64,000 bases of DNA from the IMG/VR virus record IMGVR_UViG_3300020045_008142, positions 6,372 through 70,371 of that record. One strand, 5' to 3'. Below, piece by piece: positions 36,881 through 38,679 of the stretch (the stretch's first letter is position 1; each line of letters starts with the position of its first letter). The notes under the pieces were generated by a model. The model saw only the letters and a list, made by a program, of their open reading frames with translations. It did not search any database and had not been told where the DNA came from. The stretch comes from a virus. Lineage: Duplodnaviria; Caudoviricetes. The translations under genes were made by a program, and so were the position numbers.

Positions 36881-38679
36881 GCTACGTCTCCAAACTGGTT
36901 AATTAGGTCGTGTTGTGCGGTTTGTATGCGTTTTATGGCTATGTCGAAAAAGTCTTTTTCTTTCTCTATTCCAATAAACCTAAATCCCTCTGCAATTGCC
37001 GCCTTGCCTGTACTACCACTGCCTGTAAATGGGTCTAAAATAATCCCGTTAGGTGGTGTTATTAATCGGCAAAGGTAGCGCATTAGGTTGTGTGGCTTTA
37101 CGGTTGGATGGTGGTTTTTATTTTCTGGAACGGGTCGTCCTCTCGTGTCATCGCCGCCTGAGTGCGTCCGCTTTGCTATTGTCAACTCCAAACCATCACA
37201 ACCGCTATTCCTGTCTGCTTTACTGGCTTTGGCACAATATAGAAATTGGCTGTGTTCTGACTTTTGTACCACCTTTCCCGCTATGTCCTGTTTGATGTTC
37301 TTTTCTGTGGCATGGCGCACATAACCAAACAATATCGAAAGGCTTTGTGTAGTCGGGATGATGTCTGTGCTTTCCCATACATCCGCAAACGACACAAGGC
37401 TCTGGATTAGGGTAGAGTTTTTGTAGCTTCCAATACAGTCCTGAATAACTTGTAATTCCTCTTTCTTGAAATCCAAGCTCTTTATTCCTACAAGATACAC
37501 CGCAATAAGTGTTCCGCATGAGTCGCACAGGCTCTCCGCAGACCTTACATTTAGGGCGATTTGATTGCCGTGCTTTACCACCACATTCACGCGAGCAATA
37601 AATTCTTTTATTGCTTGGGTAGTCCAGCCATTCTTTTCCGCACAATTTACAAGTATGTTTTTCCATGATGATTCGCCTTTGTTAAATTCAAGGCTAATTA
37701 TATCATTTATACCTGCTTTTGCGTAGTAATCACTGCAAATAAAGCATATTTCATCACTTGGGCAACACTTAAAGAAACGGGATGCGCTGCCGCCGCTGTC
37801 ATTATGTCCAAACGAAACTCTGGGATATTCTTTGCCCTTTGCTACACTAGGCGTTCCACTACAATTCCTAGCATTGGCTTTGCTTGCTTGTGTATCAGGA
37901 AACAAAGCCATAACCTCATCACTACCATCATGAATTAAATTTGCAGGAAATCTGCCCTTGTTTGTATCGGTGTCAGGCGTGGCAACTTGAGAATCTACGC
38001 GCCCCTCTTTTTCACGCCACGCTGAAAAATCCTTTGCGGTTGTGGGAGGTCTTTCAGTACCAACCCGACACCCATCAATATTAATCCCGCCAGTTCCATG
38101 CTTAATAACATTCTTTGCCACCGTCTTTTCAGATAACGGCTTGCGTAATAACAGCCAATTTTCATAAGCTGGTTTTAATGCAGTCCCCCATCCATCCCAC
38201 TGTTTAGCGTTGTCTGTTGCGCTGACTGTTTCAAATGATTCACCTGCCATTGCTCCGTAAGTACCCCGCTCTTTACCGCTTCGTGTATTTATACCAACAA
38301 CCTCACGAACCGCCCCAGCTTCTTTGTCGATTTGCTTACTTATGCTTAGTGATTTTGGAAACCCACTGCCAAAAATGTGAATGATATTATCGCGTAACTC
38401 AAAACCCGCATCCTCACACGCTAACGCCGTCCAGTGTTGCGTCCGTGGCAATGTCCAAACAAGCGCATGACCGCCGTGCTTTAACACTCTATTGCACTCA
38501 GTCATTACCTCAGTCATCCATGCTATCCATTCATCACGCCCGCCCTTGTTTTTATCCCATTCTTTATTCATGAACGCGATACCAGCGGGCGGGTCGGTAA
38601 CAATGCTATCGACTGAATTATCAGCAAGCCCCCGCATAACCTCTAAGCAATCGCCATTAAATAATTGAACTTCCATCAC
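36877..38679 (-). CDS. DNA methyltransferase (N4-C/N6-A type) with a ~177-aa insertion
   Basis: SIVTDPPAG catalytic motif near the N-terminus; HHPTVKP and ILDPFTGSGSTG near the C-terminus; insertion between RFF and YCAKAS. Confidence 0.9.
   Translation of the reverse strand: MMEVQLFNGDCLEVMRGLADNSVDSIVTDPPAGIAFMNKEWDKNKGGRDEWIAWMTEVMTECNRVLKHGGHALVWTLPRTQHWTALACEDAGFELRDNIIHIFGSGFPKSLSISKQIDKEAGAVREVVGINTRSGKERGTYGAMAGESFETVSATDNAKQWDGWGTALKPAYENWLLLRKPLSEKTVAKNVIKHGTGGINIDGCRVGTERPPTTAKDFSAWREKEGRVDSQVATPDTDTNKGRFPANLIHDGSDEVMALFPDTQASKANARNCSGTPSVAKGKEYPRVSFGHNDSGGSASRFFKCCPSDEICFICSDYYAKAGINDIISLEFNKGESSWKNILVNCAEKNGWTTQAIKEFIARVNVVVKHGNQIALNVRSAESLCDSCGTLIAVYLVGIKSLDFKKEELQVIQDCIGSYKNSTLIQSLVSFADVWESTDIIPTTQSLSILFGYVRHATEKNIKQDIAGKVVQKSEHSQFLYCAKASKADRNSGCDGLELTIAKRTHSGGDDTRGRPVPENKNHHPTVKPHNLMRYLCRLITPPNGIILDPFTGSGSTGKAAIAEGFRFIGIEKEKDFFDIAIKRIQTAQHDLINQFGDVA
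37220..37666 (-). CDS. HNH homing endonuclease encoded out of frame inside the methyltransferase
   Basis: Two CxxC...YCSxxC zinc repeats, then CVVCG...[25 protein letters not shown]; AAGG upstream of the ATG. Confidence 0.85.
   Translation of the reverse strand: [148 protein letters not shown]

Follow-up and report, generated by a model that had tools for sequence, protein, structure and literature searches.

A putative HNH homing endonuclease encoded out of frame within an uninterrupted DNA methyltransferase gene of an uncultured phage

Results

We analyzed a 64,000-nucleotide (nt) stretch of an uncultured member of the Caudoviricetes (positions 6,372 to 70,371 of IMG/VR record IMGVR_UViG_3300020045_008142; hereafter, the window), in which a DNA methyltransferase (MTase) open reading frame (ORF) contains, on the same strand but in another frame, a second ORF resembling an HNH endonuclease. 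The MTase ORF spans 600 amino acids (aa) from a GTG codon, or 599 aa from the ATG one codon on that was chosen by the gene caller (P0001); residue numbers below run from the GTG at 38679. It falls within the PF01555 family of N6/N4-type MTases (E 8.3e-33; 114.6 bits versus a cut-off of 26.7), also matches phrog_67, and aligns with the family motifs DPPx, HPTxKP, and FxGSG. Its closest relative, P0002 (427 aa, 80% identity), lacks an insert of 531 nt, or 177 aa in the MTase frame, which lies exactly between ...GSA-S-RFF and YCAKAS... in alignments with P0002 and other insert-free homologs. These alignments bear out the original prediction, made from this DNA alone, that the RFF-YCAKAS motif is split here; the exact nucleotide junction is inferred from the protein alignment together with 66 more distant empty alleles. 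Residues R301, F302, Y481, and K484, which border the insert, are invariant across 90 MTase sequences. As also predicted, the insert is stop-free and featureless in the MTase frame: the host-frame peptide matches no Pfam family (best E, 0.027), and in an AlphaFold2 model its predicted local distance difference test (pLDDT) score is 33 to 56 over residues 304 to 480, while the MTase core on either side exceeds 90.

The hidden ORF occupies the -1 frame of the host gene because 38679 - 37666 = 1013, which is 2 modulo 3; its codons start one base ahead of the host codons, and the host frame is therefore the HNH frame +1. It encodes the two zinc repeats and the HNH core described in the original prediction (Table 1), the core reading CxxC-G-x2-G-x-HRHH-x10-W-x-C-x2-CH-x3-H, and matches two PHROG families of phage endonucleases, phrog_2340 at E 2.5e-9 and, at E 1e-7, phrog_1271 ("HNH endonuclease"). 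The AlphaFold2 model of the ORF has a mean pLDDT of 83.7, with values above 90 over the ribbons and the core, and predicts core strands at residues 100 to 102 and 113 to 115 and a helix at 117 to 125. A Foldseek search of the Protein Data Bank (PDB) returned nothing at E ≤0.001; the top neighbors in a separate structure search were HNH nucleases, albeit at weak scores, namely those of GVE2 (5h0o, Z 4.1) and Gme (4h9d, Z 3.9), Cas5-HNH, McrA, and IscB. Together, motif, family matches, and predicted fold suggest that the hidden ORF encodes an HNH-type endonuclease with putative cleavage activity.

Table 1 Features of the MTase locus and its hidden HNH ORF (positions in the window)
Feature	Position	Strand	Basis or remark
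HNH-type endonuclease ORF, 148 aa, host -1 frame	37220..37666	-	ORF listing, PHROG, invariant residues, AlphaFold2
Two zinc-ribbon repeats, C6/C9/C24/C28 and C40/C43/C55/C59	37490..37651	-	CxxC...CxxxC; invariant columns
HNH core (predicted beta-beta-alpha-metal), C91 to H124: CxxC, HRHH, W114, CxxCH, H124	37295..37396	-	Invariant columns
TAA stop of HNH ORF, from host codons AGT AAA (Ser-Lys of YCAKASK)	37220..37222	-	18 to 20 nt past insert end
Extended -10 promoter-like box, TGATATAAT	37697..37705	-	30 nt upstream of HNH ATG; consensus match, predicted function
Shine-Dalgarno (SD)-like AAGG	37676..37679	-	9 nt before HNH ATG at 37666
531-nt insert, host residues 304 to 480, no stop in host frame	37240..37770	-	Absent from P0002 and most homologs
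R301-F302-F303 codons, upstream copy of split motif (5' junction)	37771..37779	-	Alignment, empty alleles
Last three insert codons, degenerate second RFF copy adjoining Tyr	37240..37248	-	Q-F-L here, R-F-L in most relatives
MTase ORF, PF01555 N6/N4 type, uninterrupted across insert	36877..38679	-	ORF listing, Pfam, homolog alignment
dCTP deaminase gene, 3' of MTase	36287..36880	-	GTG start overlaps MTase stop (GTGA)

The stop codon of the hidden ORF lies within host sequence at nearly the distance originally predicted (about 20 nt beyond the insert), and in most relatives the stop likewise takes the form xxT AAR at the first Lys of YxxKAS, because the codon before this Lys usually ends in T. 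Upstream, the SD-like AAGG of the original prediction is present, and many relatives carry GGAGG or AGGAG at this position. Of 40 distinct elements, 19 have the extended -10 consensus TGnTAnnnT in the 60 nt before the HNH start, compared with 3.3% of 1,168 control windows taken from the same ORFs, a 14-fold enrichment. Two spacing classes are evident: in eight elements the box lies exactly 6 nt before the ATG (e.g., TGATACAAT-gagtgt-ATG), a spacing that would begin a leaderless mRNA at the ATG itself, while in the second class, to which the window belongs, the box lies 26 to 36 nt upstream and is followed by GGAGG or AAGG. The conserved "DTMS" of the host-frame peptides is the translation of this putative promoter. 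Judged by these motifs, the stretch of ∼100 nt that separates the HNH start from the 5' junction is not filler, and the element family suggests how hidden ORFs may be expressed, either from an internal extended -10 box with an SD sequence or through leaderless spacing. We also considered a -1 frameshift fusion of the MTase N terminus to the HNH protein. This was rejected, as in the window and most relatives a stop closes the HNH frame a few codons ahead of the conserved ATG, and this ATG has its own SD sequence or -10 box.

We gathered related loci by DNA pattern scans independent of gene calls, obtaining 49 contigs, of which 43 are viral and 6 belong to metagenome-assembled genomes (MAGs); 46 of the 49 carry complete elements, and the other three loci are truncated or chimeric. 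In 46/46 elements the HNH ORF occupies the same site (RFF/YxxKAS, the slash marking the insertion point) in the same relative frame (host = HNH +1) within an open PF01555-type MTase frame. The elements bear one, two, or three N-terminal ribbons, and the inserts range from 115 to 208 aa. In an alignment of 47 sequences, 20 residues never vary, and these include all Cys and His ligands; the window copy has all 20. The Pfam model DZR_2 matches 15 of the 47. The original prediction referred to a "proteobacterial-type phage," an assignment that these data do not bear out: the window comes from an uncultured IMG/VR record, and its relatives are found in viral contigs and in MAGs labeled PVC, Cyanobacteria, Gammaproteobacteria, and Kiritimatiellia. 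At the end of one Kiritimatiellia MAG contig (L049), the C-terminal half of the HNH sequence is joined in frame to ∼350 aa of unrelated enzyme-like sequence; this locus is probably an assembly chimera or a truncated relic and was left out of the statistics.

Such ORFs are systematically missing from annotations. A protein search with the hidden HNH yielded 13 homologs (P0121 to P0133; 54 to 83% identity), all on contigs shorter than 1.6 kb, which fits suppression of the ORF by gene callers wherever the longer MTase frame is intact and swallows it; on longer contigs, callers report just the MTase. In a profile search of 1.84 billion protein representatives, only 15 close relatives were found at E ≤1e-30, along with hundreds of larger proteins bearing multiple ribbons, in some cases with an HNH core at the C terminus; these larger proteins are likely the free-standing ancestors of the hidden HNH. 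No free-standing close relative of the window HNH was found among the 49 loci. A second HNH-like ORF, free-standing and with 39% identity to the core, lies in the same 70-kb record outside the window (G000:C1:2672-2800).

The HNH frame is under purifying selection, as the original prediction had anticipated. Mean pairwise differences at HNH codon positions 1, 2, and 3 are 0.38, 0.34, and 0.55, respectively, and the most variable of these is the second codon position of the host frame. Amino acid identity is greater in the HNH frame than in the host frame in 946/946 pairs (0.53 versus 0.33), and the ratio of nonsynonymous to synonymous substitution rates (dN/dS) is 0.23 in the HNH frame versus 1.06 in the host frame (Nei-Gojobori, 64 pairs with 70 to 97% nucleotide identity). 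Simulations with selection on the HNH frame alone, tuned to a dN/dS of 0.24, gave a host-frame dN/dS of ∼1.2 (interquartile range, 1.0 to 1.5), close to the observed value; the sequence of the host-frame peptide is therefore under little or no constraint.

These patterns bear on whether the insert might instead be an ordinary, vertically inherited variable domain of the MTase, with the HNH-like ORF overprinted or arisen by chance and without function. Host-frame translations of different inserts can be aligned with one another, and the nine proteins matched in a search with the host-frame peptide are all PF01555 MTases, as such a domain would predict (that there are so few matches is explained by the peptide diverging too fast for the word index). 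Nevertheless, this host-frame similarity is a shadow cast by the conserved HNH frame: variation is greatest at the second host codon position, and the host-frame dN/dS is near 1. All metal ligands are kept in the HNH frame across the 47 sequences, the closest MTase is insert-free, and occupied alleles are polyphyletic, so that we assign this explanation almost no probability.

Although the host-frame peptide is free to change, the host frame is actively kept free of stops. Shuffling synonymous codons within each HNH ORF leads to an expectation of 1.9 host-frame stops per element, while none was observed in the 46 elements; only 1.8% of shuffles of the window copy leave the host frame open (median across elements, 6.6%). 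Stops in the third frame are close to expectation (8.7 observed versus 10.2 expected). The same shuffles reveal that the HNH +1 frame is inherently the poorest in stops (∼2 versus ∼10), which may explain the survival of the host -1 arrangement: the family suggests that hidden endonucleases are found in this frame because it offers the fewest stops.

The distribution of the element is patchy. At roughly 60 of 66 MTase loci retrieved via flanking peptides, the RFF-YCAKAS site is empty; the element is present in L117, and L103 retains a 16-aa in-frame remnant. Insert-free alleles are thus the majority. On a tree of 62 MTase sequences stripped of the insert, 22 of them from occupied alleles, occupancy changes state 15 times compared with a mean of 18.0 for shuffled labels, an approximately unbiased (AU) test rejects a single occupied clade (log-likelihood difference, 595; p = 1.8e-9), and the sister of the window sequence is the empty-site P0002. 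HNH identity exceeds MTase-flank identity in 84% of pairs. The inserts of L006 and L007 are 92% identical, with a synonymous divergence (dS) of 0.26, in flanks with a dS of ∼1.0, and the pairs L026/L027 and L014/L016 are alike in this respect. Highly similar inserts in diverged flanks and polyphyletic occupied alleles point to recent lateral transfer into a fixed site, a signature consistent with homing.

We consider it likely that the insert is a selfish homing-endonuclease cassette that lives unspliced in the MTase gene, much as the original prediction proposed; the patchy distribution, the contrast in dN/dS between the two frames, and the lack of host-frame stops are all in keeping with an element that spares its host gene by holding the host frame open. 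On this reading, the nuclease would cut DNA and home, the insert would not be spliced out, both ORFs would be translated, the promoter would be active, and the long protein would keep its activity as an MTase. The cassette would bring its own expression signals, either an extended -10 box plus an SD sequence or a -10 box that sets the mRNA start at the ATG, and the HNH ORF would borrow its stop from the conserved host Lys codon. Ribosomes translating the MTase would read through the cassette in the host frame, adding a 177-aa filler peptide whose sequence is not conserved, and selection would purge stop codons from that frame. The nuclease presumably cuts insert-free alleles at the conserved RFF/YCAKAS coding sequence, and recombinational repair would then copy the cassette in, allowing it to spread among divergent MTase genes during co-infection.

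The junctions are compatible with such a cycle. Where empty alleles read GSAARFF/YCAKAS, occupied alleles keep the upstream RFF and have a second, degenerate copy at the end of the insert, directly before Tyr. This second "RF" would keep RFxYxxKAS contiguous, so that the MTase itself could survive, as could translation of the gene downstream. Tyr is followed by C-A in empty alleles, but in 31/34 occupied alleles these two residues are replaced by T-P, Q-A, Q-S, or others, and these changed bases beside the junction would also shield occupied alleles from the nuclease. In the metagenome contig L103 (Ga0207695_10001333), this site holds 16 extra residues in frame, RFF-KVIKWTEEDRFWE-RFF-YVPKPS. 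The short insertion starts with K, contains a further RFF, and is followed by Y-V-P, as in occupied alleles; it resembles a scar left behind when internal deletion removed an element.

Residence at one conserved site, patchy occurrence, and conservation greater than that of the host gene are also typical of introns and inteins, and phage group I introns often carry HNH genes. The insert could then be removed after all, as an unrecognized small ribozyme, a host-assisted intron, or an atypical intein, with the open frame a side effect. However, only ∼104 nt of the insert lies outside the HNH ORF, which itself runs past the 3' junction, too little space for the core of a group I or group II intron, and a spliced intron would need neither 46/46 open frames nor stop avoidance. 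No Rfam match was found between positions 36500 and 39000 at E ≤10, nor at the gathering score in 20 related loci. An intein was examined as a candidate in its own right and rejected: the window insert opens with K, and those of relatives with K, F, Y, M, Q, or A, rather than with Cys, Ser, or Thr; the insert ends in QFL or RFL rather than HN; the +1 residue is Tyr in 34/34; and there is no match to Hint or intein Pfam models. With the intein-defining residues and Hint domain absent, as the original prediction had noted for intein and intron signatures alike, we regard removal of the insert as very unlikely.

The MTase gene is tightly packed between a virion structural gene upstream and the dCTP deaminase gene downstream, with stop/start overlaps on both sides (38674 to 38679 and 36877 to 36880, respectively); a nearby ORF at 34389 to 35699 on the minus strand has no PHROG match. 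In principle, the cassette could be mobile and unspliced in an MTase that is dead, with the frame held open solely to let ribosomes traverse the whole gene, whether to avoid polarity, to keep coupling to the dCTP deaminase gene, or to provide ribosome cover on the HNH mRNA. The overlaps with both neighbors (GTGA downstream), the disruption of an invariant motif, and an unconstrained host-frame peptide with a low-confidence fold would all suit a dead MTase. The sequence around the 3' junction speaks for a living one. Per-codon variability returns to the host-frame pattern, with the third position most variable, at codon -3, and R is kept through AGA, CGA, and CGC; selection thus acts on the host-frame protein from RFxY on, and retention of R-F before Tyr despite synonymous variation is expected only if the protein matters. 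Farther downstream, all occupied alleles also retain the motifs HPTVKP and GSGST, and their C-terminal part is full length; dN/dS of the MTase flanks stays at 0.2 to 0.6. The constraint on RFxY argues that the long MTase is made and matters, and we consider a dead MTase improbable, though less so than removal of the insert.

Several observations weigh against the interpretation of the insert as an unspliced homing cassette in a working gene. Pfam HNH models did not match the window HNH ORF, a PDB sequence profile search with this ORF found no match, and its structural neighbors score only Z 3 to 4, although such scores are expected for a 40-residue core. The promoter call is consensus-based, and a sigma-70 scan that requires a -35 hexamer did not list the window box. 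The 46 open frames share ancestry and are not 46 independent trials, even with divergence to ∼50% aa identity. Selection on the MTase flanks of occupied alleles is no proof of function after insertion, because it largely predates the recent transfers, and retained MTase activity is not obvious, since the insert interrupts a motif that ranks among the best conserved in the MTase.

Discussion

The original prediction cited a comparable out-of-frame HNH insert in actinobacteriophage methylases, and this precedent is real (Arsenault, Gosselin, and Gogarten 2025, PMC11855218). Known as the "ShiLan domain," it is a hidden HNH insertion, encoded out of frame, in the DNA methylases of mycobacteriophages (Gosselin et al. 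2023, PMC9957025; PMC11855218); the published set comprises about ten actinophages and was described without selection tests (PMC11855218), and the literature we searched makes no mention of it outside actinophages. We identified ShiLan-type alleles by tblastn in phages Pollywog and Bipolar, whose MTases are ∼40% identical to P0002. The two elements have much in common: the same host gene family, an insert that is stop-free in the host frame, and an HNH ORF on the same strand in the host -1 frame (in Pollywog and Bipolar; the ShiLan GTG at insert nt 18 gives the same frame). Both also have a duplicated host flank at the border, lack the signatures of inteins and introns, are patchily distributed, and give a host-frame peptide that is predicted to fold with low confidence. 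The window element thus shows the stop-free methylase insertion, same-strand HNH ORF, and disjunct distribution with a less-diverged element that mark the ShiLan type, but neither homology to the ShiLan HNH nor its insertion site.

The ShiLan-type site is LKPxxEP/xxARKP, which is empty in the window, while the window site RFF/YxxKAS lies ∼150 residues downstream. The ShiLan HNH is I-HmuI-like (...HH.NG...DNR..NL) and 195 aa long, in contrast to the 148-aa window protein with its CxxC-HRHH-W-CxxCH core and the one to three ribbons of its family; the window HNH has no mycobacteriophage match. The ShiLan ORF starts at a GTG with no detectable ribosome-binding site and stops within the insert (TAAC), whereas the window family uses an ATG with an SD sequence and/or an extended -10 box, and the window stop is a host Lys codon. 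Because the site differs and the HNH is unrelated to that of ShiLan, sequence comparison places the window element in a separate, new family of a known kind.

Other cassettes occur in the same MTase family. Four loci (L003, L009, L034, and L045; host aa ∼115 to 400) carry two hidden cassettes each, one of the window type and one at the ShiLan site, the latter with an I-HmuI-like HNH at LKPxxE../..ARKP and a duplicated ARKP flank; L044 has another Cys-rich nuclease-like ORF just after ARKPL. In Escherichia phage BUCT618 (L133, OM735461.1), an MTase of this family at 983 to 2845 is annotated as one 621-aa protein and contains an insert of ∼230 aa at a third site, after ...SKQIDQ and before SKAIDKAAGAEREV, with the flank duplicated. 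The insert hides a canonical HNH ORF of ∼200 aa in the host -1 frame (L133:1393-1998), which has no relative in 50,697 phage records; L026 has a similar third-site cassette. L006 and L007 additionally carry an intein-like insertion (host aa ∼150 to 440) that begins CLSEDTEILT after ...AWLYG and includes a 280-aa +1-frame ORF with CxxC pairs; it may represent an intein that houses an endonuclease out of frame, an arrangement reported for actinophages.

At least three sites in this MTase family (SKxID, LKPxxEP/xxARKP, and RFF/YxxKAS) are therefore occupied by at least three unrelated hidden HNH families, nearly always in the host -1 frame and each with a duplicated host flank. This recurrence leads us to lean, with some reservation, toward the view that frame-preserving, unspliced homing-endonuclease cassettes are a general and largely unannotated way of colonizing genes that extends beyond actinophages. 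Because BUCT618 is a cultured Escherichia coli phage, this kind of element can be tested at the bench, and its related cassette offers a tractable system for doing so.

By the usual view, a homing endonuclease must reside in an intron, in an intein, or between genes if it is to spare its host gene. The 2025 ShiLan report proposed a fourth way, which is to stay in the gene and keep the frame open (PMC11855218). The window represents a second and much larger family, from uncultured phages of other hosts, and its ∼50 copies permit a comparative test; while the kind of element is not itself new, our analysis substantially extends a barely characterized class and provides the first selection-based evidence on how it persists. 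A second published example, Pacc40 gp60 (PMC11855218), resembles the window in having an out-of-frame putative endonuclease ORF in a methylase whose frame stays open, but involves a different methylase family and site, and is related to genes that stand alone upstream of the methylase. In some inteins, a homing endonuclease encoded out of frame or antisense likewise occupies another frame of an in-frame insertion (bioRxiv 10.1101/2025.01.02.630785), yet these inteins have Hint splicing domains and are excised from the protein, whereas the window insert is without the defining residues. Finally, I-HmuI, I-TevIII, and the T4 Mob/Seg endonucleases share with the window element a small HNH nuclease, DNA-binding zinc modules, a conserved coding target, and patchy inheritance; they sit in self-splicing introns or between genes, in contrast to the window HNH, which lies in coding sequence and would depend on read-through in the host frame.

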